Assembly (NCBI GenBank): GCA_965223415.1
Contig: OZ245002.1
Location: 1,568,001 to 1,632,000, forward strand
Length of the DNA stretch: 64,000 nt
Source of the DNA: Myxococcota bacterium
GTDB lineage: Bacteria > Myxococcota_A > UBA9160 > UBA6930
Direction: 5' to 3'
Under the pieces are notes generated by a model, which was not told the origin of the DNA, did not search any database, and saw only the letters and a program-made list of their open reading frames with translations. The position numbers and the translations under genes were made by a program. Below, in pieces: positions 2,465 through 64,000 of this stretch (the first letter of the stretch is position 1; every line of letters starts with the position of its first letter).

Positions 2465-3755
2465 CAGGCTGCGGAAAAACCCCGTGCGACGGGTCGAATC
2501 GGTTGGTACAGGCATACCGGGGGGATGGAGATGCGCGGAACCGATCGAACGCAGTCCACGATGTTCAGCTACGTGTCGCCGGAGGCGCGTGTCCCCGCCG
2601 ATCATCCACTGCGCGTGACGCGGGAGATGACGAATCGCGCCCTGGTCCGGCTGGACGGGAGGTTGCGGAAGCTGTACTCGCGGACGGGTCGGCCGTCGAT
2701 TCCGCCCGAGCACCTGTTGCGGGCCCTGCTGCTGCAGGTGCTCTACTCGGTGCGAAGCGAGCGGATGCTGATGGAGCAGCTCGAGTACAACCTGCTGTTC
2801 CGCTGGTTCGTGGGGCTCGAGATGGACGACCGGGTCTGGGACGTGACGGTGTTCACGAAGAATCGGGATCGGTTGCTTCGGGGAGAGATCGCGGAGGGGT
2901 TCTTTCAGGCCGTGTTGGCGGAGGCCCGCGAGGAGGGGCTTCTGTCGGACGAGCACTTCACGGTGGACGGCACGCTGATCGAGGCATGGGCGGGGCAGAA
3001 GAGCTTTCGGCCGAAGGACGAGGACCGGGGCGGCCGCGGGGGTGGACGGAAGGCGACGGAGCGGGACTTCCACGGTGAGCGTAGGAAGAACGACACGCAC
3101 GCCTCGACGACGGACCCGGAGTCCCGGCTCTACCGCAAGGGGAAGGGGAAGGAAGCGAAGCTGTGCTTCATGGGCCACGTGGTGACGGAGAACCGGCATG
3201 GCCTGGTGGTGGCGGCCAAGACGACGCTGGCCACGGGCACGGCGGAGCGCGAGGCCTCGGTGGCGATGGTGAAGCGGGTGCCACGCGGACGGCGATCGAC
3301 GTTGGGCGGAGACAAGGGCTACGACACGGTGTCGCATGTCGAAGAGCTTCGAGAGCTGGGCGTGACCCCGCACGTTGCGCAGAACGACAAGGGCCGCCGC
3401 AGCGCGATCGATGATCGAACGACGACGCACGTGGGCTACGAGATCAGCCAGCGCAAACGCAAGGCGATCGAGCAGGTCTTCGGCTGGGGGAAGACGGTAG
3501 GCCCGATTCGCAAGGTGAAGCATCGCGGCAAGGAGCGGGTGGGCTGGATGTTCACGTTCACCCAGGCGGCCTACAACCTTGTGAGGATGAGGAACCTGCT
3601 ATGCCCCACGTAGCTTGTCGGGTCGAGTGGAGGGCCCCGTTGGCAGCGAGCCGGGCGTCAACCGGCGGCAAGGCCTCGATTCCGCGCTCCTTTCCTAGCC
3701 AAAGCGCCTCCAAGGCACCGTTCTCTGCGTACCATCGGCGTTCTTCCGCAGCCTG
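2465..3755 (+). mobile_element. IS5-family insertion sequence, 1291 bp
   Basis: Terminal inverted repeats CAGGCTGCGGAAAAAC (2465-2480) and GTTCTTCCGCAGCCTG (3740-3755), 15/16 match. Flanked by CTAG at 2461-2464 and 3756-3759. Single transposase gene. Confidence 0.93.
2525..3613 (+). CDS. IS5-family DDE transposase
   Basis: GRPSIPPEHLLRALLLQVLYSVRSERML, TVDGTLIEAWA, LGGDKGYD, RKAIEQVFGW, AAYNLVRM motifs. Confidence 0.95.
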   Translation: MEMRGTDRTQSTMFSYVSPEARVPADHPLRVTREMTNRALVRLDGRLRKLYSRTGRPSIPPEHLLRALLLQVLYSVRSERMLMEQLEYNLLFRWFVGLEMDDRVWDVTVFTKNRDRLLRGEIAEGFFQAVLAEAREEGLLSDEHFTVDGTLIEAWAGQKSFRPKDEDRGGRGGGRKATERDFHGERRKNDTHASTTDPESRLYRKGKGKEAKLCFMGHVVTENRHGLVVAAKTTLATGTAEREASVAMVKRVPRGRRSTLGGDKGYDTVSHVEELRELGVTPHVAQNDKGRRSAIDDRTTTHVGYEISQRKRKAIEQVFGWGKTVGPIRKVKHRGKERVGWMFTFTQAAYNLVRMRNLLCPT

Positions 3756-4556
3756 CTAGGGCAGATCCTGCGCCTCCACCTCGTCCACGTTCCACCAGGG
3801 GGACATGGCGAACTGGATCGCGTCCCCGAACAGGACGACGTGGCGCGGTGTGGGCTCGACCTTCCCCGCCCAGCGGGTGGTGTCCTCGATCTCGACCTTG
3901 GCCGGGTCGATCAGGGTCGTGCGGGCGTTCGCGAGGCCCGCGTCGTAGAAAGTGCGATCGCAGATGCCGTTCAGCCAGTAGATGAAGTCGTTGGCTTCGA
4001 CCCATTCGGCCGTCGCACGGATCGGCTGGCCGGCCCCGGGCTCGTGGCAGACGGACGCGAAGTGGGAGCCGTCCGCGCAGACGACCTCACTCGAGAGCGA
4101 CCCGCCCTCGAGGCCGTGACGGACCTCCCCGATCCCGGTGAAGATCGCCACCGGATCCATCGAGAATGCGTCCGCCCGGGCTTCGACGACCAGGTAGCGC
4201 GGCTTGCCGGTGGAGGGCTCCCGGACGTAGAGGGACCATTCGGCTCGCAGCCCGTTCGCCAGGCCCGAGACCCGGTAGACGTTGAGGGTGAGGCAGTGGA
4301 AGGGCTCCTCTCCCTCGATGCATCGGATCGGTGCCAGCGGGTGGGGCAGGTCGAGCTCCGCCTCGATCTGACGCTTGCCCTCGGACGTGAGCGCGAAGTT
4401 GAAGTAGACCGAAGGCGGCGAAGCCTCCACCGTGAAGTGGACCAGGGGCTTGTGCCGGCCCAGGAGGATGAGGAACGAATCGCGCAGGTAGAGCTGCGAG
4501 TAGACGAAGCGCTTGATCAGCTTGCGCAAGAGGCGTTGGGATCGGGACAGGCTCAT
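3756..4556 (-). CDS. Hypothetical protein (possibly acetoacetate-decarboxylase-like fold)
   Basis: 266-aa ORF with protein-like composition, overlapping the upstream WS/DGAT stop by 4 bp. The fold guess is weak. Confidence 0.7.
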   Translation of the reverse strand: MSLSRSQRLLRKLIKRFVYSQLYLRDSFLILLGRHKPLVHFTVEASPPSVYFNFALTSEGKRQIEAELDLPHPLAPIRCIEGEEPFHCLTLNVYRVSGLANGLRAEWSLYVREPSTGKPRYLVVEARADAFSMDPVAIFTGIGEVRHGLEGGSLSSEVVCADGSHFASVCHEPGAGQPIRATAEWVEANDFIYWLNGICDRTFYDAGLANARTTLIDPAKVEIEDTTRWAGKVEPTPRHVVLFGDAIQFAMSPWWNVDEVEAQDLP

Positions 4557-36616: not shown

Positions 36617-36946
36617 CTGCTCACGATCCGAGAGCTCGAACGCTCGCTGCGCTTCCACGGCGCCCTCGGCTACCGCGAGGTCACGGGCTATTCGCCGACG
36701 GACCACGAAGGCGAGGGCCTCCACTTCCTCGTGCGACCCGGCTTCTCGGACATCCTGACGCTGCGCGTCGGCGGCCCGCCCGGCGTCGACCACTTCGGCT
36801 TCTTCATGAGGGACGCGTCGACACTCGACTCAGCCATCGAGGAGCTCGAGAAGGCGGGCGGACCCTTCCTCGAGAAAGACGAGTTGGCGCCGGGCGTGTG
36901 GTCGGCGTTCCTCGCGGACCCGGACGGCTACAAGATCCAGATCTGA
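36617..36946 (+). pseudogene. VOC family gene lacking a clear start
   Basis: IRELERSLRF, GVDHFGF, FLADPDGYKIQI. The N-terminal His motif and an RBS/start are not evident. Confidence 0.6.
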
Positions 36947-37018
36947 GCGGCCGACAGCGCGGCATCACCGGGTGCCCACGATCAGCGGCGCCTCGGCAGC
37001 CCGGGAAACGGAGGCTGC

Positions 37019-37095
37019 TGGCGCGCCCGGCACGACTCGAACGTGCGACCTCCAGGTCCGCAACCTGGCGCTCTATCCAACTGAGCTACGGGCGC
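37019..37095 (-). tRNA. tRNA-Arg (anticodon GCG)
   Basis: GCGCCCG acceptor stem, TAGCTCAGTTGGATAGAGC D-arm, CCAGG-TTGCGGA-CCTGG anticodon arm, GTTCGA T-loop, encoded CCA. Confidence 0.95.
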
Positions 37096-37141
37096 TCTCA
37101 GAGCGGGGCGCGAATCCTAGCGAACCCTGCTCGGGAAGCCT

Positions 37142-37229
<88 letters not shown>

Positions 37230-37280
37230 GGGCGCTCGCGTGGGCTGAATTCGCGAGCGATCACATGCACTTGGGGGATC

Positions 37281-37370
<90 letters not shown>

Positions 37371-37479
37371 GGTCCGCCGCGCTCCGCGACGGGAGGCGTA
37401 GGATACCGGCTCCCAGGGCCCCGGAAACCCCCGGGGACGCTCTGCCGGGAACTGTTAAGAGAGGTTCCTGGCACCTTTC

Positions 37480-38016
37480 TTAACGGATGTCGCGGTCGAG
37501 GACGGTCTTGCGTTCGTCGCGGCGGGCGTTCTCGATGGCCTTGTCGCAGGCGGTGCGGATGAGGTCGGAGAGGGGGGCGAGGACGCGGTCGGAGGTGTTC
37601 ATGCCAGAGCGGGCCTTGATGTAGTCCTTGAGGCGGCTGGCGATGACGAGGACCTCTCGCGGGACGTTGGCGGCGGGGGGCGGGCTCGGCGCGGCCTGGG
37701 CGGGCTGGCTGGGGGCGACGCGGCGGCGGGGCTCGCGCTTGGCGCTCCGCTCCCGCTCGGCCGCGGGCTTCGGCGCGGGCTCGCTCTCGGCGGCCTGCTG
37801 GCGCCGCCACTCGGCGGCGCCGGGGCTCTTCTTCTCCTCGGCCCAGGCCTCCCGGTGGTTCATCGTCGGCAGGTGGGCGTCCCAGCAGTCGACGGAGCAG
37901 AACACGAAGGCCGTGTTGCGGCGGTTGCAGGTGGAGACGTTGCAAACGTAGTAGGCGGTCTCGAACGGGATGGGCTCCCGGCAGGAGCTGCAGCGGCGCC
38001 AGGCCTCGTCGCTCAT
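37480..38016 (-). CDS. Bacterial histone-fold protein with N-terminal Cys/His zinc finger (ZZ-histone type)
   Basis: C-terminal EVLVIASRLKDYIKARSGMNTSD...LSDLIRTACDKAIENARRDERKTVLDRDI matches the pattern of the Bdellovibrio Bd0055 histone fold, with the RKT...RD loop. N-terminal CxxC, Cx4C, Cx3C, H, H. AAGGAGG RBS. Confidence 0.85.
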   Translation of the reverse strand: MSDEAWRRCSSCREPIPFETAYYVCNVSTCNRRNTAFVFCSVDCWDAHLPTMNHREAWAEEKKSPGAAEWRRQQAAESEPAPKPAAERERSAKREPRRRVAPSQPAQAAPSPPPAANVPREVLVIASRLKDYIKARSGMNTSDRVLAPLSDLIRTACDKAIENARRDERKTVLDRDIR

Positions 38017-38026
38017 GGGTCCTCCT

Positions 38027-41000
38027 TCAGCGGGTCTCTTCGAACACCCCGGCCAGGCGCTGGAGCACGATCTCCTCGGTCCGGGAGACCGTGCGCAGGC
38101 CCACCACGCCGCCGGCGGCCTGGGCGACGCCCCGCGCGCGCACGAGCACGGTCTCCTGGAGGCGCAGGCGGCCCTCCACGCTGAGCTGGGGAAGGAGCGC
38201 CTCGACGTAGCCGCGCCAGGCCTGGAAGAGGCGGTCCTCCGGCGGGCCGGCCAGCCACTCGGAGAGGAGCTGCAGGCTCTGGCCGTCGCGCTCGAGGCCC
38301 AGGCTCCCGGCGGCCTCCAGGATGGCAGAGCGCTCCTTGTCGTCGAGCTGGCCGTCGGCCCACGCCACCTGCACGAGGGGAATCAGGGCGAGGGCGCGCA
38401 GGGTTTGGTCGTGGATGCCGAGGGACGCGAGGGACGCCTGCAGCGAGGCGTCGCCCAGCTCGACGTCGCCCGCGAGCACGTGCTCGCTCCAGCGGACCTC
38501 GCGGCGGGCGAAGGCCTCGCCGAGCTGCTGGCCGCGAGTGTGCAGGGCAAGGCGCGACGCGAGCAGCTCGTTCGTGTTCTGGAATAGCACCGTGGCGATG
38601 CGCGGGTAGCGAAGGGCCAGGTGACTCATCGCCTCCTGGGAGAGGCGCAGGAGCCGCGCGTCCTCGACCACCTCCGCGTTCAGCGCGTGCTCGCCGTGGA
38701 AGAGGCCCGCCTCGCCGACCGTGTCGCCCCGGTCGTGGAGCGAGGCGATCAGGTTGCGGTCGCCGGCGTCGACCCAGCTGCGCACGGCGCCGCCGATCAC
38801 GACGTACATGCCCTGGGCCGGCTCGCCGGCGTGGAAGAGGGCGCGCCCTGCCGGCGCCTCCACCAGCGTCCCCATCAGCGCGACGATGCGGGCCTGGCCC
38901 GCCCGCAGCCCCTGGAAGAGGCCGATGGTCCGGCGCGGGTCGTCACCGAGGTCGAGGCTCACGAGGTCCCAGAGCGTGACGATGCGCATGCGCGCGCAGA
39001 GCGCCGGCGTGAACGTCACGTCGGTGAGCCAGGCGAAGGCCAGAGCGAAGGCGGCCAGCACGCCGATCTCCCGCTGGGTGGAGAGATCGCTCACCAGCAG
39101 GCACAGGAAGCCGGCGCAGAGCGCCATGGTCGTCACGGTGACTGGCGGGCCCACGGCGGCCAGGGTCGCGGCCGTGGCCTTCTCCTCGTCGCCCAGGCGC
39201 TTGGCATCGCGGATGAAGCGGGCGAAGTAGTGGATGGTGTCGTCGACGGCGATGCCCAGCACCATCGGCGCGATCAGGCTCGTGCCCGGCGAGAGGCTGA
39301 CGCCGGTCCAGCCGAGGGCACCGAAGTAGACGGCTACCGGCACGGCGTTGGGGAGCAATGCCACCAGGCCGACACGCAGGGAGACGAAGAGCGCCGCCAG
39401 CACCACGTAGATGATCCCGAAGGCCGCCAGCACCGAGATCGTCTGCCCGCGGATGATCTGGTCGAGGGCGTCGCTGATGATGACGGAGGTCCCGGTCACC
39501 CGCGCGTCGATCGAATCGGGCAGCTCGGCCAGGCGCGTGGCGATCCGCCCGGTCAACGCCGTGACGTCGTCCGAGTCGATCACCTTGGCGCGAACGCGAA
39601 CGACAGTCCGTTGATAGGCGACGTCCACCAGGTTGCGCAGCTCCCGGCTCTCGCCGAAGAGCAGGATTTGGCTCACCAGGCGCTGGCGCTCGGGGAGCGC
39701 GAAGTACTCCGGATCGTTCTCGTGGAAGCCGCGGTTCAGGAGCTTCAGGTGGTCGACCAGGGAGGTCGTCTCGCCCACGGCGGGATCGGCGGAGAGCCAG
39801 GCCTGGAGCTCCTCGATCTCGCGCAGGTGCTCCGGCTTCTTGAAGGTGTCGCGGGTCTCGCCCTCGAGCACGATCAGGAGCGGGTTCGCGCCGCCGAGAC
39901 GATCGTTCACCGCTTCGTAGTGGAGCCGTACCTCGGAATCCGGCGGGAACTTGCGGATCTGGTCGGAGCCCACGCGGATGGAGCCCGCCCCGACGAGCGC
40001 CAGCACCAGCGCCGCTGCGAAGCCGCCGAAGATCCACGGCCGCTGGCGCACGGCGAAGTGGGCGACCCGTGTCGCGATGCCCTCGGCCCGGCCCGTCGCC
40101 GGCGGATGCCGGCGCGGAAGGGGCAGGAAGGCCAGCACCGCCGGCGTGAGGGTGAGGGAGGCCAGCACCGTGCATCCGACGCCCAGCACCGAGAGCACGC
40201 CGAACTCGCGCACCGCCGGGAGGGGGGAGAGGATCAGCGTGGCGAACCCGATCGCGGTGGTGAGGCCGGTCAGCAGCACCGGGAGCTGCACCTGGCCCGT
40301 GGCCGCGGCGGCGCGGACCGCCGGCCGCTCCCCCTCCACCTCGTAGTACTCGCTCACGACGTGGATGGCGTAGGAGAGCCCGAGCGTCGTGAGCAGCGCG
40401 GGCACGAGGACGGTGACGGCGTTCAGCACGTGGCCGGTCGCCACCATCAGGCCCAGGGCCCACACCACCGCCACGGCCACCGTCACGAGGGGCACCAGGA
40501 CGCCGCGCACGGTGCGGAAGGCCAGCACCAGCACGAGGGACATGGCGCCGAGGATCAGGCTCGGCAGCAGGAAGGTCTCGCGCACCAGGACCCGGGCGTT
40601 GGCGACGCCGAAGTGGGGGCCGCCGGTCAGCCAGATCTGGGCGTCGCCGGCCTCCGCGTGGGCGATCTCGAGGAGGCGGTCGCTCACGCCGCGCTCGCCG
40701 TACTCCCGGCTGTCGAGGGGCGCCAGGGTGAGGAGCAGGGCGGTGGCGCTCTCGTCGCGGGCCACCAGGCTGCCCGCCGTGAAGGGGTTGCCCATCACGG
40801 CGTCGCGGACGGCGGCGAGCCCCGCCTCGTCCTCGGGAATCGCCCGCACGAAGGGGCCGATCTCGATCCCCTCCTCGGTGCCCACCACGTCGACGGCGTT
40901 GGTCAGCGAGGTGACGCTGCGGATCTCCTCCAGCTCCGCCAGCCTGCGCGTGATGCGATCGATGCGCTGCAGCGAGTCGGTCGTGAAGAGCGCGTCCGGG

Positions 41001-41230
41001 GCGAAGCCCAGCACCAGGCTCTCGTCGCTGCCGAAGCGGCGTCGGGCCTCGGCGAGGAAGGTGCGCGCCTCGCTGTCCTCGGGAAGCAGGCTCTCGATCG
41101 AGGGCTCGATGTGGAGCCGGGAGCGCCCGTCCTCGAGATCCACGAGCGCGGCCAGGGCGAGCAGGGTCGCGACCACGACACCCGCGAGCACCCAGGCGGC
41201 GTGGTGCTCGATGGCCGCACGCAGGCGCAC
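38027..41230 (-). CDS. MMPL/RND-family transporter with C-terminal cNMP-binding and TerB-like domains
   Basis: Two MMPL repeats (LTTAIGF, GIAVDDTIH), then LFHAGEP..GMYVVIGG.V...GDTVGE, then LVQVAWADGQLDDKER. Confidence 0.88.
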   Translation of the reverse strand: MRLRAAIEHHAAWVLAGVVVATLLALAALVDLEDGRSRLHIEPSIESLLPEDSEARTFLAEARRRFGSDESLVLGFAPDALFTTDSLQRIDRITRRLAELEEIRSVTSLTNAVDVVGTEEGIEIGPFVRAIPEDEAGLAAVRDAVMGNPFTAGSLVARDESATALLLTLAPLDSREYGERGVSDRLLEIAHAEAGDAQIWLTGGPHFGVANARVLVRETFLLPSLILGAMSLVLVLAFRTVRGVLVPLVTVAVAVVWALGLMVATGHVLNAVTVLVPALLTTLGLSYAIHVVSEYYEVEGERPAVRAAAATGQVQLPVLLTGLTTAIGFATLILSPLPAVREFGVLSVLGVGCTVLASLTLTPAVLAFLPLPRRHPPATGRAEGIATRVAHFAVRQRPWIFGGFAAALVLALVGAGSIRVGSDQIRKFPPDSEVRLHYEAVNDRLGGANPLLIVLEGETRDTFKKPEHLREIEELQAWLSADPAVGETTSLVDHLKLLNRGFHENDPEYFALPERQRLVSQILLFGESRELRNLVDVAYQRTVVRVRAKVIDSDDVTALTGRIATRLAELPDSIDARVTGTSVIISDALDQIIRGQTISVLAAFGIIYVVLAALFVSLRVGLVALLPNAVPVAVYFGALGWTGVSLSPGTSLIAPMVLGIAVDDTIHYFARFIRDAKRLGDEEKATAATLAAVGPPVTVTTMALCAGFLCLLVSDLSTQREIGVLAAFALAFAWLTDVTFTPALCARMRIVTLWDLVSLDLGDDPRRTIGLFQGLRAGQARIVALMGTLVEAPAGRALFHAGEPAQGMYVVIGGAVRSWVDAGDRNLIASLHDRGDTVGEAGLFHGEHALNAEVVEDARLLRLSQEAMSHLALRYPRIATVLFQNTNELLASRLALHTRGQQLGEAFARREVRWSEHVLAGDVELGDASLQASLASLGIHDQTLRALALIPLVQVAWADGQLDDKERSAILEAAGSLGLERDGQSLQLLSEWLAGPPEDRLFQAWRGYVEALLPQLSVEGRLRLQETVLVRARGVAQAAGGVVGLRTVSRTEEIVLQRLAGVFEETR

Positions 41231-41234
41231 GTGC

Positions 41235-42023
41235 TCAGTCCACCGAGCGTCCGAGAGTGGAGATCTCGAAGATGCGGCGTCGGATCTTCTTGTCGACCTC
41301 GAGGGCGGTCACCTCCAGGGTCGTGGTCGAGCCAGCCAGCAGGTCCTCCATCACGAGCCGACTCGGGATGCGCACGCCGTCCTGCTCGATCAGGGACGAC
41401 AGGTCCGCCCGCATCACCTTCCGCAGCTGACCGCCGGGCTCGAACATTTCGCTCTTGGCGGGGACGCAGGTCCCCTGGGAGACGTAGGTCACGACCCGCT
41501 CGTAGGCCGATCCGTCTTCCGGCTTCTTCGTCTGGGCGAAGGCGTCCATCGCGACGCCGTCCACGTCCGTGGCGGGAAGTCGCTCGGTGGCGCCCGCCAT
41601 CGCCAGGCCCTGGAGCTGCTGGAAGTCCTCGTAGGTGAAGTCACTCCCGAAGAGCGAGCCGGACACGGTATGGGAGGTGATCCGCCGGCTCTTCTGCAGC
41701 TCCGGCGAGTAGAGGAAGAGATCGGTGCCGTCGTCCCGCTCGATCAGGAGCACCGCGGAGCCGCGCACGTCTTCCGGACTCAAGACCTGGATACGCGCGC
41801 GGGAACGCTTCTCCTTGAAACGGTTCCACCAGATCTTCGCCTTGAGCTCACGGCTGGAGCCCCCGCGGTCCTGGGTGCGCAGCGTTACTTCCTGGACGCT
41901 GCTCTTCTCCGGGAAATTGGCGCGGACGCAATCGGCGAGGGCCTCGATGCCCTCCTCGGCGGCGAGGGCGGGGCTGGAGCCGAGGAACACGACAAGGAGC
42001 AGGGCGGAGGGGGTGCGGAGCAT
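41235..42023 (-). CDS. Outer-membrane lipoprotein-sorting (LolA-like) protein
   Basis: Signal peptide, SPEDVRGSAVL, LYSPELQKSRRI, LFGSDFTYEDF. Typical MMPL partner. Confidence 0.85.
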   Translation of the reverse strand: MLRTPSALLLVVFLGSSPALAAEEGIEALADCVRANFPEKSSVQEVTLRTQDRGGSSRELKAKIWWNRFKEKRSRARIQVLSPEDVRGSAVLLIERDDGTDLFLYSPELQKSRRITSHTVSGSLFGSDFTYEDFQQLQGLAMAGATERLPATDVDGVAMDAFAQTKKPEDGSAYERVVTYVSQGTCVPAKSEMFEPGGQLRKVMRADLSSLIEQDGVRIPSRLVMEDLLAGSTTTLEVTALEVDKKIRRRIFEISTLGRSVD

Positions 42024-42295
42024 GCCCGGGAGGGTAGGCCCGCTGGTACCCCGCGCTCAACCCGAGCGGGTCTGCTCCCATTCTTCAAGCTCCAACACGG
42101 CGATGACGTCCGGGAGAGAAGGCACGCCGAACCGCCTCGCATGCAGAAGGCGGGCGCCAGCGACGACGGATGCCAGGCCGGAGGAATGGAAGCCGCGGCT
42201 ACGAGGCCAACGAGCGCGAAAGCTGCTGGTCGCCCTGCGGCGCTGCTAGGCGGGCCGAACGGCGGGGGAACCGCCGAGCCCGGCGGCGGACGCGG

Positions 42296-42380
<85 letters not shown>

Positions 42381-42797
42381 GGGGGAGAAGGGTAGCAAGG
42401 GCGGTCAGTTGCAGAGGCGCCGCAAACACCCCGCGGGTGTGACGTCGCTTGTTGCTGCTCCTGCCTCTCGCGTATCGTGTACAGACGGCGCTTCCGTACA
42501 TGGCTACAAGCCAAGCTCCTGACGAATCGCTGCGACTCGAATAGGTCCTGGAGGGGGAGTGAGTGAGCCCCGGTGGTTCCCGAGTAGCTGAGAGGCCGCC
42601 CAGACGATCTGCAGAGGTTGTGCGCCGCGCTGACGAAGCCGGCGCTCCACCCCATCGATCTGCGGCCAACTCCATCTGGGGCATGAGCCAAGGCTGGCTC
42701 GCTCCGATCGCCGTTCCTGCATCGGAGGTCTGCCCGCTCATGCGGTGGATCGGCGGGATGAACCGCATGCAGCGGCGCCTCCGGGGAGGGGAGTGAC

Positions 42798-61262: not shown

Positions 61263-61541
61263 CTAGCGGTTGTAGCCACCGCCGCCGCCACCGCGGCGGT
61301 CCTGGGCTTCGTTCACGCGCAGGGGACGACCCCCCATGTCGCTGCCGTCGAGGGCGCGGATCGCGTCGTTCGCGGCGCTCTCCTCGCTCATCTCGACGAA
61401 CGCGAAGCCGCGTGCCCGCCCCGTCTCGCGGTCGGTGATGACCGCGACGGAGTCGATGCTCCCGTGACGACCGAACAGGTCGCGAAGCTCCTGCTCGGTG
61501 GCGGAGAAGGGAAGGTTGCCGACGTAGATCTTCTTGCTCAA
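61263..61541 (-). CDS. RNA-recognition-motif (RRM) RNA-binding protein
   Basis: IYVGNL (RNP2), RGFAFVEM (RNP1), Gly-rich tail. TTG start after GAGGA. Confidence 0.93.
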   Translation of the reverse strand: MSKKIYVGNLPFSATEQELRDLFGRHGSIDSVAVITDRETGRARGFAFVEMSEESAANDAIRALDGSDMGGRPLRVNEAQDRRGGGGGGYNR

Positions 61542-61900
61542 TGCATGGTCCTCGTGACTCGCGCAGATCGCGCGGCCACGGATCGCTCCGGTCGCGGGTC
61601 CGGACGATCCGGACGGGTTCCCGTCGCGTGGGTGAGCCCCGGGGATCCGGGCCTCGAGGGGATTCGACGGGAAACAGTGGCTGGCCAGGGCCGAGCCAAG
61701 GGAACCGATCGGAGGCCTCTCAACGACGGAGGCTAACAAGTGTTCCGGATCCGGCCCGGGGAGCCGGAAGCCCCCGGGAACTCAGGCGATTTCCGTCAGC
61801 CCTCGGCCGATGACCAGCCCGAAGCCCTGAGGCCCTCGGGCCTGGGCGCCCGCTCAAGACCTGCCTCCGGCGGTTCGATGCGCTGCTCGGGGAGGCCGCG

Positions 61901-64000
61901 ATGCTTCGATTCACCCGATCTCGGCGCCTGCTCTTGCCTGCGAGCCTCTACCTGGTGCTCGCAACGGCCGGCCTGACGTTTGCGCACCAGGCGGGAGCCC
62001 AGCGCTCGAGTGACGGTGGCGACGACAAGCCGGCGATGGAATGGGTCGCGGACCTGAAATCCCCGACCCCGGGAACCCGCACCCGCGCCACGATCGCCCT
62101 GGCCAAGCTCGAGCCCACCCCGCCCGAGGTGGTCGCCGGGGTCGCCGCACTCCTCGAGCAGGAGAGCTGGTCCGTCCGCGCCCAGGCGCTGATGGTGCTG
62201 GGGAACCTCGGCCCAGAGGCCTCGAGTGCGTTGCCGAGGATCCTGGACGCTCTCCACGACGAGAACGAGCACGTCCGTCGCTCGGCCGCGGGCGCGCTGC
62301 CCAAGGTCCCGGCGCGGACCCACGAGACGCGGCTCGCGCTGGTGGAGATCCTCGCGGCCGAGAACCGCTACCTGCGCACCCAGGCAGGCTACGCCCTGGC
62401 TGCCGTGGGCGACGAGGCGGGAGACGTTGCGCCGGAGCTTGCTCGTCTCGTGACGGGCGACGATCGCCTGGTACGCGAAACGGCCGTCAACGTGCTCGCG
62501 AAGCTTCCCCCCGACGCGGTGGTGCCCGTCCTCATCCCGCTGCTGACCCACGAGGACCGCTCCGTCCGTCAGGGGGCGGCAGGAACGCTGGGCTCCTTCG
62601 GACCGGCGGCGCGGGCCGCAGTCCCGACCCTGGTCGGATTGCTCGACGAGTACCCACACCACCTGATGGCGGTTCACACGCTGGGTCGCATCGGTCCCGG
62701 TGCGAAGGAGTCGATTCCCGCGCTCCTGGCACTCTTCGACAGATCGGATCCCAGCCGCCAGCTGCGGATCGCAGCCGCCCAGGCGCTAGGCGGGATCGGT
62801 CCCGAGCCGCGCGAGGTGCTGCCCCTCTTCCGCGACGAGCTGGCAGCGCAGGAGCTCTCGGAAGCGACCGGGCGCTATCGCACGACGCTCGCTGCGGCGA
62901 TTCTCGAGATGAGCGGTCCCGACGACCCGGCCATCCGGTCCTATGTGAAGCGCCTCGGGCGCGCGGGGAGCAGCTGGATTCCGATGACCCGGGTGGAAGC
63001 GGTCAAAGCCCTCGCCGCCCTCGGTCCCGCAGCGAGCCCGGCGGTGGACTCGCTGCGCTCCTCGCTGCGCGAGGATCGCGAGCCGAAGATCCGCGGCCTC
63101 GCCGCGGAGGCGCTGGGTGGGATCGGCGCAGCGGCGCGCCCGGCCCTGCCGGACCTTCTCGAGGCTCGGACAGACGACGACGAGGAGTACGTCCGCAAGC
63201 GGGCCGACGCCGCCATCGCCAGGATCGAGGCCCGCGGCACCGAGACGGCCCCTCCGGCAGCGGCGGCGAAGTCGACGCCCGGGGCCGAGCGCGCGGAGCG
63301 GCAGAAGGAGATCGCCGCCGACATCGCCGCGCTCGGCGCTTCGGGATCGCGTCAGACGCGAGCCGCCCTCCGGCTGCTCGAGCGCGCTCCCGAGAGCCTT
63401 CCCGCCCTGCACAGGGCCGTACTCTCGCCGGATACCGACGAGGCGGCCCGGGGCCGCCTGATCGCGCTGCTCCTCGACCTCGGCGATCCCCGCTCGGTGG
63501 ACGTCCTCCTCCAGGCGGTGCGGGCCCATCCGCAGGAGCGCGGGCTCCGCATCGACGTCCTGCGTGCGCTGGGCGAGCTGCCCCCGACCGAGGCCTCGTT
63601 CGAGTTCGCGAGACGTACGCTCGTCGACGCCCAGGAGATCCCGCGCGCCAAGCGCCAGGCGCTCCTCTACTTCGCCATGCAGCGCGACGAGCGTGGGCGC
63701 GAGTGGGCTGAGCGCTTCCGGAACAGTCCCGACCTCGACTTGCGTGCGGCCTCGCTCTACCTGGCCGCGTCGATCGGAGACACGACCGCCCTGGAGCCCG
63801 CTACGACGCTCCTTCGCGAGCAGCCGCGATCCTCGATCCGCTACGGCTTGCTGCTGGCCCTGACGGAATTGGTGGATCCGGCGGAGCTCGTGCGGCGCGT
63901 CGAGCCGGAGCAACGGCACGGCGACGCGTACGACAGCGCACTGCGCATCGCGAAGCTGCGGTCCGCCGCGCCGAACGAGCGCGTGGCATTGGCTCGCGAG
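61901..64000 (+). CDS. Secreted HEAT-repeat (PBS lyase-like) protein, runs off the window
   Basis: ATG at 61901 after GGAGG, signal peptide, repeated VR..AA..LG.IGP.A..AVP.L units. Absent from the ORF track because no stop lies within the window. Confidence 0.85.
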   Translation, partial: MLRFTRSRRLLLPASLYLVLATAGLTFAHQAGAQRSSDGGDDKPAMEWVADLKSPTPGTRTRATIALAKLEPTPPEVVAGVAALLEQESWSVRAQALMVLGNLGPEASSALPRILDALHDENEHVRRSAAGALPKVPARTHETRLALVEILAAENRYLRTQAGYALAAVGDEAGDVAPELARLVTGDDRLVRETAVNVLAKLPPDAVVPVLIPLLTHEDRSVRQGAAGTLGSFGPAARAAVPTLVGLLDEYPHHLMAVHTLGRIGPGAKESIPALLALFDRSDPSRQLRIAAAQALGGIGPEPREVLPLFRDELAAQELSEATGRYRTTLAAAILEMSGPDDPAIRSYVKRLGRAGSSWIPMTRVEAVKALAALGPAASPAVDSLRSSLREDREPKIRGLAAEALGGIGAAARPALPDLLEARTDDDEEYVRKRADAAIARIEARGTETAPPAAAAKSTPGAERAERQKEIAADIAALGASGSRQTRAALRLLERAPESLPALHRAVLSPDTDEAARGRLIALLLDLGDPRSVDVLLQAVRAHPQERGLRIDVLRALGELPPTEASFEFARRTLVDAQEIPRAKRQALLYFAMQRDERGREWAERFRNSPDLDLRAASLYLAASIGDTTALEPATTLLREQPRSSIRYGLLLALTELVDPAELVRRVEPEQRHGDAYDSALRIAKLRSAAPNERVALARE

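Follow-up and report, generated by a model that had tools for sequence, protein, structure and literature searches.

A ZZ histone gene in a Myxococcota genome encodes a conserved, putatively two-zinc head joined by a basic linker to an HBb-like histone fold

We analysed a 64-kb stretch of DNA from a Myxococcota bacterium (contig OZ245002.1, positions 1,568,001 to 1,632,000; hereafter the window, G+C content 69.4%) and focused on a minus-strand gene at 37480..38016, stop codon included, whose open reading frame (ORF) translates into a protein of 178 amino acids (aa). The protein is near certainly a ZZ histone and typical of that family, which is already described in print, is very common and occurs mostly in Myxococcota and Bdellovibrionota. 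From its N-terminus, it comprises a two-zinc ZZ-like head (residues 6-66; 37819..38001), delimited by ligand conservation, an AlphaFold2 model and fold matches in the PDB; a predicted helix packed behind the head (residues 67-79; 37780..37818), placed by the models and weakly conserved; a flexible, basic linker rich in Pro, Ala and Arg (residues 80-119; 37660..37779), recognised by model confidence, composition and charge and containing the sequence REPRRRV; and an HBb-like histone fold whose alpha-3 helix is truncated (residues 120-178; 37483..37659), identified by phmmer, Foldseek and a dimer prediction, all four parts being encoded on the minus strand. The ATG at 38016 lies 10 nt past the TGA (38027-38029) of an upstream transporter gene of the MMPL family. 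The intervening gap, read on the coding strand, is AGGAGGACCC and holds a minus-strand Shine-Dalgarno sequence, AGGAGG (38021..38026), 4 nt ahead of the ATG. There was no second histone or copy of the head elsewhere in the 64-kb window, and no compositional island or meaningful repeat around the gene, the repeats that were found being tRNA-Ser paralogues.

An antisense ORF of 108 codons (37625-37951, plus strand) with a G+C content at third codon positions (GC3) of 0.98 was considered and rejected as a shadow frame. A GC3-based gene picker preferred this ORF because both frames share the third codon position; protein-level homology settled the coding strand as minus. A word-indexed search with clustering at 90% returned 2679 relatives with an expectation value (E) ≤ 1e-3 out of 2961 candidates, the best of them 74% identical to the window protein and the closest, P0002-P0007, spanning 64-74% identity. 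Nearly all were unnamed at source, and two were named "histone H3/H4". When representatives at 50% identity were searched exhaustively, 638 clusters fell at E ≤ 1e-3, 399 at ≤ 1e-10 and 67 at ≤ 1e-30. Relatives in such numbers, spread over so many clusters, indicate that the gene is not a chance reading frame. At least 543 species-representative genomes encode a relative, among the 601 pattern matches listed. Comparisons of loci were made across the best 80 related loci, which were labelled as Myxococcota (50), Bdellovibrionota (11), Pseudomonadota (8, mostly legacy metagenome-bin labels), Binatota (3) and Spirochaetota (2), with six unlabelled.

ZZ histones were introduced as a family in work by Schwab and colleagues (2024, Nat Commun 15:7950; PMC11390915), who gave D0LYE7 of Haliangium ochraceum as the example and whose published data file carries the label "ZZ histone" 528 times. 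Among the histones whose alpha-3 helix is truncated, Hu et al. (2025; PMC12701072) list five subfamilies, ZZ histones being one. Hocher et al. (2023; PMC10627809) described Bd3044 as a longer and less abundant second histone-fold protein of Bdellovibrio bacteriovorus, and from this account together with that of Schwab et al. (PMC11390915) the ZZ histone of B. bacteriovorus HD100 is probably Bd3044. The copy in the window adds no new biology on its own; it is the family-wide comparisons described below that narrow the questions about how such proteins act.

The initial annotation of the gene had described a C-terminal histone fold like that of Bdellovibrio Bd0055 (HBb) with an RKTVxxRD loop, preceded by an N-terminal Cys/His zinc finger and a basic, Pro/Ala-rich linker, and each of these elements held up in our analysis. 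As a single sequence, residues 120-177 matched HBb (8cmp, 8fvx) by phmmer with an E of 1.1e-8; a profile built from 45 family members matched HBb at 7.6e-16, HLp at 6e-9 and the archaeal histone HTkC at 4.3e-7. An AlphaFold2 model of the full-length protein had a mean predicted local distance difference test score (pLDDT) of 83.3, with values of 86-95 across the predicted histone fold. The top five PDB matches of this model by Foldseek were all HBb chains, with target template modelling (TM) scores of 0.81-0.85, root-mean-square deviations (rmsd) of 1.3-1.5 Å and 46% identity (for 9ezz, 0.85, 1.3 Å and 46%). The loop is present as R169-K-T171-V-L-D-R175-D176, so that the C-terminal end reads RKTVLDRDIR, and the RxTxxxxD motif is formed by R169, T171 and D176, all three invariant in 45 sequences. 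The alpha-3 helix amounts to one turn, and the chain stops two residues past the clamp residue D176. Assignment to the archaeal/eukaryotic nucleosomal class of histones (PF00808, NF043032) was rejected, as matches fell below the cut-offs and alpha-3 is truncated; PF00808 gave weak matches in 17 of 45 members, with a best E of 0.0044.

The residues by which HBb contacts DNA have been listed as T8, S9, K10, K12, K16, N22, T23, S24, A25, K52, T53 and R57 (PMC11317129), and these map, in order, to A126, S127, R128, K130, K134, N140, T141, S142, D143, K170, T171 and R175 of the window protein. Nine of the twelve positions are identical (S127, K130, K134, N140, T141, S142, K170, T171 and R175), and one more is changed conservatively (K10 to R128). 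The HBb clamp of R51 and D58, together with D49, is likewise retained as R169 and D176, together with D167. Seven contact or clamp residues (K130, T141, S142, R169, T171, R175 and D176) are invariant across the 45 sequences. We also considered whether the histone fold could serve as a dimerisation scaffold only, in a protein that does not bind DNA and acts, for instance, as a zinc or redox sensor or as a dimeric adaptor among proteins. Such a role would suit a Cys-rich head and the very low expression reported for the B. bacteriovorus ZZ histone (PMC11390915), and Schwab et al. caution that histone-fold proteins need not all organise genomes (PMC11390915). However, the conservation of the contact residues, nine identical and one conservatively changed among twelve with seven contact or clamp positions invariant, is hard to explain without contact to DNA, and 193 of 231 members have a basic linker. 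We therefore consider a pure scaffold very unlikely, and DNA binding by the window protein likely.

A handshake dimer of the kind found for HBb is predicted as well. Two copies of residues 116-178 gave an interaction prediction score from aligned errors (ipSAE) of 0.89, compared to 0.00 for the best control, and three runs agreed in at least 98% of contacts with partner pLDDT of at least 90. In the predicted dimer, loop L1 of one copy (residues 139-142) contacts loop L2 of its partner (residues 171-173). In calibration of the tool, the mark was reached by 20 of 30 solved same-chain pairs and by 1 of 23 single chains. Because HBb dimers have already been solved, the result may mirror the likeness of the window protein to them, and it shows this likeness rather than providing independent proof of dimerisation.

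Between the fold and the head, residues 80-119 include 11 Pro, 10 Ala and 8 Arg/Lys among 40 positions and carry a net charge of +5, and pLDDT values of 51-73 over residues 81-130 indicate disorder. Linkers from 231 members of the family range from 0 to 83 aa, with a median of 31 aa; Ala makes up 19% of their residues, Pro 18%, Arg 12.5% and Ser 11%, and 193 of them have a positive net charge. Arg-Arg-Ile/Val recurs in these linkers, with RRI present in 78 of the 231; the window protein reads REPRRRV.

The head is defined by eight ligands, C9, C12, C25, C30, C40, C44, H48 and H54, all of which are invariant in alignments of 45 and 48 sequences. All 80 loci keep the exact spacing C-x2-C-x12-C-x4-C-x9-C-x3-C-x3-H-x5-H, as do 226 of the 262 family proteins that match the head profile. 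Among 12 of the other 36, most are without the N-terminus and a few have a shorter loop. In three head variants, P0258, P0191 and P0177, the loop that separates the fourth Cys from the fifth is shorter, and the Asn-Arg-Lys-Arg-Thr stretch found elsewhere in the family is missing. Following the pairing of ligands in PMC11390915, the eight residues form two putative zinc sites, a C4 site (C9, C12, C40, C44) and a C2H2 site (C25, C30, H48, H54). Mean pairwise identity is 66.3% in the head and 66.0% in the histone fold, and 30% in the helix that follows the head. In the full-length model this helix covers residues 67-78. A separate AlphaFold2 model of a fragment (residues 4-79), with a pLDDT of 88.3 and a predicted TM score (pTM) of 0.74, places it at positions 64-75 of the fragment.

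The initial annotation had also proposed that the protein belongs to the ZZ-zinc-finger histones. The protein does match the published category; the ZZ label itself, however, rests on a weak likeness of fold. When the head alone was compared with the PDB by Foldseek, ranks 1-29 were ZZ domains (p62, HERC2, PRT1, KCMF1, ZSWIM2 and BIG), with MYND fingers lower in the list, and the p62 ZZ domain was rank 10 with the full-length model. The best of these matches had an E of 0.045, a probability of 0.97 and TM scores of 0.45 (query) and 0.62 (target), and none reached E ≤ 0.001. The Pfam ZZ family (PF00569) did not match the window protein at E ≤ 10 or any of 45 members at E ≤ 1; Pfam matches of the head among these members were weak and fell on VAL1-N, C1_2 and VATC fingers. 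The head profile found nothing among PDB sequences at E ≤ 10, nor did a viral fold library yield a match at E ≤ 0.001. Judging from the models, "ZZ-like" appears to be a fair structural label, while membership in the eukaryotic ZZ family is not supported by sequence.

Two readings were weighed for what the head contacts. In one, the head would recognise a partner protein by its free N-terminus or by a short peptide, and the histone dimer would act as an adaptor that anchors this partner to DNA. The consistent occupation of ranks 1-29 by ZZ domains, and the appearance of p62 at rank 10 with the full-length model, point in this direction, as the p62 ZZ domain binds an N-terminal arginine through an acidic groove formed by D129, N132, D147 and D149 (PMC6197226). 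Schwab et al., who likened the ZZ-domain structure to HERC2, p300 and ZZZ3, raised such an idea for H3-like tails (PMC11390915). The same authors report, however, that the pocket residues of the eukaryotic domains are not conserved in ZZ histones and that, among genomes that encode a ZZ histone, only 50% have another histone (PMC11390915). In contrast to the acidic groove of p62, the family columns next to the zinc knuckles hold Ser at position 10 (90%), inside the first knuckle, and Asn-Arg-Lys-Arg-Thr at positions 31-35, after the second; acidic residues are absent at positions 10-11 and 31-34 and occur at 1% at position 35. The failure of Pfam ZZ to match any of 45 members at E ≤ 1 and the lack of a conserved neighbouring gene that would suggest a partner also argue against an adaptor, and we regard this role as possible, if unlikely. 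Basic residues are conserved in the head at positions 7 (96%), 8 (85%), 13 (98%), 32 (85%), 33 (75%), 34 (78%) and 55 (99%), and the basic columns adjacent to the knuckles lead us to favour an anionic partner for the head.

A survey of 269 family proteins showed how head and fold are combined. One head with one fold accounted for 218 of them, and 13 carried one head and two tandem folds (P0010, P0037, P0121, P0123, P0126, P0129, P0133, P0142, P0145, P0147, P0155, P0160 and P0163). Six had two folds and no head, the Met-starting ones including P0205, P0212 and P0266; one had a fold only and one a partly duplicated head. Tandem doublets of the fold would be expected if the fold works as a pair, and the form with one head and two folds is a built-in pseudodimer with a single head. 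The word "doublet" is absent from the main text (outside the references) and the text-form supplement of Schwab et al. (PMC11390915). The remaining 30 ORFs contained a head only; we rejected these as a separate architecture, since they end in linker or in text that looks out of frame and are apparently truncated or frameshifted. A search for the head in longer proteins (313-2000 aa, with residues 1-80 as the query), which is weak evidence in itself, gave one match, P0269, with a frameshift-like tail, and was likewise set aside. In the ESM Atlas, the head retrieved only unnamed Myxococcota clusters of 69-78 aa, which are probably fragments of the ZZ-histone family; the nearest named clusters, at 0.86, are a lead only. 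As far as sequence comparison goes, the head thus appears to be practically confined to histone-fold proteins. In one locus, L042, an 82-aa ORF (3700-3948, plus strand) ending in RAEGRKTVLDRDF lies 1.8 kb downstream of the ZZ-histone gene and resembles a relic of the C-terminus of a histone fold (profile E 1.3e-4).

Three genes are packed tightly on the minus strand, the histone gene coming last. The first in the apparent operon is a LolA-like gene (41235..42023; Pfam LolA_like, 9.3e-34), followed after a 4-nt gap by the gene for an MMPL/RND-type transporter with a cyclic-nucleotide-binding domain (38027..41230), which is a context feature outside the family. The transporter has 1067 aa and matched Pfam MMPL (5.1e-39) and cNMP_binding (6.6e-14); its C-terminal fusion consists of the cyclic-nucleotide-binding domain (residues 790-873) and a weak DUF533/TerB-like stretch. 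Downstream, beginning 109 nt past the histone stop codon, are tRNA-Ser(gct) (37281-37370), tRNA-Ser(gga) (37142-37229) and tRNA-Arg(gcg) (37019-37095), identified by ARAGORN and Rfam, and tRNA-Ser(tga) (42294-42380; ARAGORN) lies upstream of the three genes, all on the minus strand. The tRNA-Ser genes tga, gct and gga thus bracket the LolA-like/MMPL/histone group on the same strand and are the source of the only notable direct repeats in the region. Between 36900 and 42600 there was no terminator-like site on the minus strand (two on the plus strand lay inside an ORF), and a promoter scan of the same interval returned nothing.

The 10-bp gap to the MMPL gene and the adjacency to tRNA genes are present as the initial annotation had described them, and it had left this coupling unexplained. 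The arrangement is real; it proved to be lineage-specific, and the synteny among homologues that the annotation had suggested checking was not conserved beyond a single locus. That locus, L001, from the closest genome, keeps the LolA-like gene, the MMPL gene, the ZZ histone (61% identical, gap of 15 nt), tRNA-Ser(gct) and tRNA-Ser(gga). The same fusion of MMPL and cyclic-nucleotide-binding domains occurs in L001 (4748-7942, plus strand). When the window MMPL, LolA-like, acyl-CoA dehydrogenase and esterase proteins were used as tblastn queries against the 80 loci, an MMPL gene adjoined the histone gene in one (L001), with distant MMPL-type matches elsewhere in the locus in L004 and L016. Similarly, tRNA genes were directly downstream in one of 60 scanned loci (L001). 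Clustering of neighbours, based on stop-to-stop ORFs and alignment coordinates, in which clusters 1-3 were shadow frames of the histone gene, found no gene family in more than 13 of the 80 loci, and the 13-locus family was never within 500 nt. With MMPL in 1 of 80 loci and tRNA genes in 1 of 60, the neighbours are uninformative on the function of the family, and the coupling to MMPL reflects chance in the local gene order or, at most, an arrangement particular to the lineage.

These data bear on whether the protein could be a lineage-specific regulator or partner of the LolA-like/MMPL(cNMP) operon that is co-translated with it and links envelope lipid transport to DNA. The 10-nt gap with its AGGAGG after the MMPL gene, the 4-nt gap between the LolA-like and MMPL genes, the lack of a minus-strand terminator-like site in 36900-42600 and the gene order kept in L001 would all fit such a partnership. 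Against it, MMPL is adjacent in just 1 of 80 loci, the window protein is typical of the family without any lineage-specific feature, and in 17 of 67 high-GC loci a same-strand gene ends 40 nt or less upstream of the histone gene, according to heuristic gene calls, and these genes are mutually unrelated. They encode a periplasmic binding protein, a glutathione S-transferase, a molybdopterin oxidoreductase, a carboxyl transferase, an FKBP and ArgJ; three further ones are trypsin-like, one encodes a bicarbonate transporter, two are Band 7 genes and four had no Pfam match. We give an operon-specific role hardly any credence. Some of the upstream genes recur within sub-lineages: a trypsin-like protease is encoded immediately upstream in L046, L071 and L074 (two of them labelled Kofleriaceae), and an SPFH/Band 7 gene in L069 and L079. 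Elsewhere in the window are a DUF772/DDE transposase gene (2465-3610, plus strand), a gene for a 172-aa protein bearing an RRM_1 RNA-recognition motif of eukaryotic type (61266-61781, minus strand; E 4.7e-23) and a HEAT-repeat protein gene that runs off the window end (61814-64000, plus strand).

We favour, with a probability of about 0.6, the reading that the ZZ histone is a small chromatin-type DNA-binding protein consisting of an HBb-like dimer with a basic tail and tethered zinc heads. Two copies would pair through the C-terminal histone fold in a handshake arrangement as in Bdellovibrio HBb, and the L1 and L2 loops and the start of alpha-1 would grip the DNA backbone at the minor groove through Ser, Thr, Lys and Arg residues shared with HBb. 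Because these grip residues are shared, the dimer would be expected to bend DNA and to bind it irrespective of sequence. The disordered, positively charged linker may add DNA affinity in the fashion of a histone tail, and each subunit would carry its two-zinc cross-brace head on a flexible tether as a second contact module. The partner of the head would be anionic, most probably a second stretch of nucleic acid; a protein N-terminus seems less likely. The low expression in B. bacteriovorus suggests that the role may be a specialised architectural or regulatory one, and not bulk packaging.

Several observations weigh against this reading, at the fold as well as at the head. Two HBb contact positions are changed (T8 to A126 and A25 to D143), Pfam gave no histone match for the window protein at E ≤ 10, and the NCBIfam model archaea_histone (NF043032) scored 20.1 bits against a cut-off of 50. 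Residues 1-66 have a net charge of -1 and acidic residues are conserved at positions 46, 56 and 61, so that the head is not an obvious nucleic-acid binder. The top fold matches of the head are all peptide-binding ZZ domains, and cross-brace zinc domains mostly bind protein. Moreover, the correspondence between the p62 pocket residues and the knuckle-adjacent columns of the family is our assumption. The literature searched yielded no experimental study of a ZZ histone, although these proteins form a large subgroup of the bacterial histones, themselves recognised only recently.

A more specific version of the favoured reading concerns the groove. The head may combine a ZZ-like fold with a groove that has turned from acidic to basic and now grips an anionic ligand, the likeliest being another segment of DNA or RNA, so that the dimer would loop or bridge DNA. 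We put this forward tentatively and think it rather unlikely to hold in full. The strong constraint on the head, its confinement to histones, the lack of a conserved neighbour and the basic columns jointly suggest that no neighbouring gene encodes the ligand. If the proposal were true, a groove-switched head would represent a mode of action undescribed for any histone-fold protein with a zinc domain, and the forms with one head and two folds would be single-arm versions of the looping or bridging device.

To our knowledge, HBb and HLp are the only bacterial histones with a DNA-bound structure. HLp of Leptospira perolatii and the archaeal HTkC (9qt0, 9f2c) share the truncated-alpha-3 fold with the window protein, at a target TM of 0.88 and 24-31% identity; they are, however, face-to-face tetramers that wrap or bridge DNA, and they have no zinc domain. 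HBb/Bd0055 (8cmp, 8fvx, 9ezz, 9f0e) is closer, the fold being 46% identical over 58 residues with an rmsd of 1.3 Å, and it shares the DNA-contact residues (9 of 12 identical), the R-D clamp, the one-turn alpha-3 and the predicted handshake dimer. In contrast to HBb, which at ~60 aa is the fold alone, the window protein has 178 aa with 119 extra N-terminal residues that make up the zinc head and linker, and because of this extension we file it under the ZZ histones and not the bacterial dimers. HBb is also highly expressed and probably essential, whereas the ZZ histone is weakly expressed in the one organism tested (PMC11390915, PMC10627809).

For the head, the eukaryotic ZZ domains (p62/SQSTM1, HERC2, p300, ZZZ3, PRT1 and KCMF1; PF00569) share the ligand order Cys2, Cys2, Cys2, His2. 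Their likeness in fold is consistent but weak (E of at least 0.045, TM 0.45-0.62, rmsd 3.5-5 Å) and there is no sequence match, the window head has an extra beta-strand and helix past the last His, and the acidic groove that binds N-termini is, as described by Schwab et al., not conserved in ZZ histones (PMC11390915). The published ZZ histones themselves share the architecture of the window protein: the N-terminal domain with C4 and C2H2 sites, the linker, the fold like that of the bacterial dimers, the truncated alpha-3 and the RxTxxxxD motif (PMC11390915). A legend in that paper numbers the third and fourth Cys of the C4 site two residues apart (PMC11390915); they are four apart in every sequence compared here. 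The taxa, Myxococcota and Bdellovibrionota, are the same and nothing of substance differs, the LolA-like/MMPL operon and tRNA setting of the window copy being specific to its lineage.

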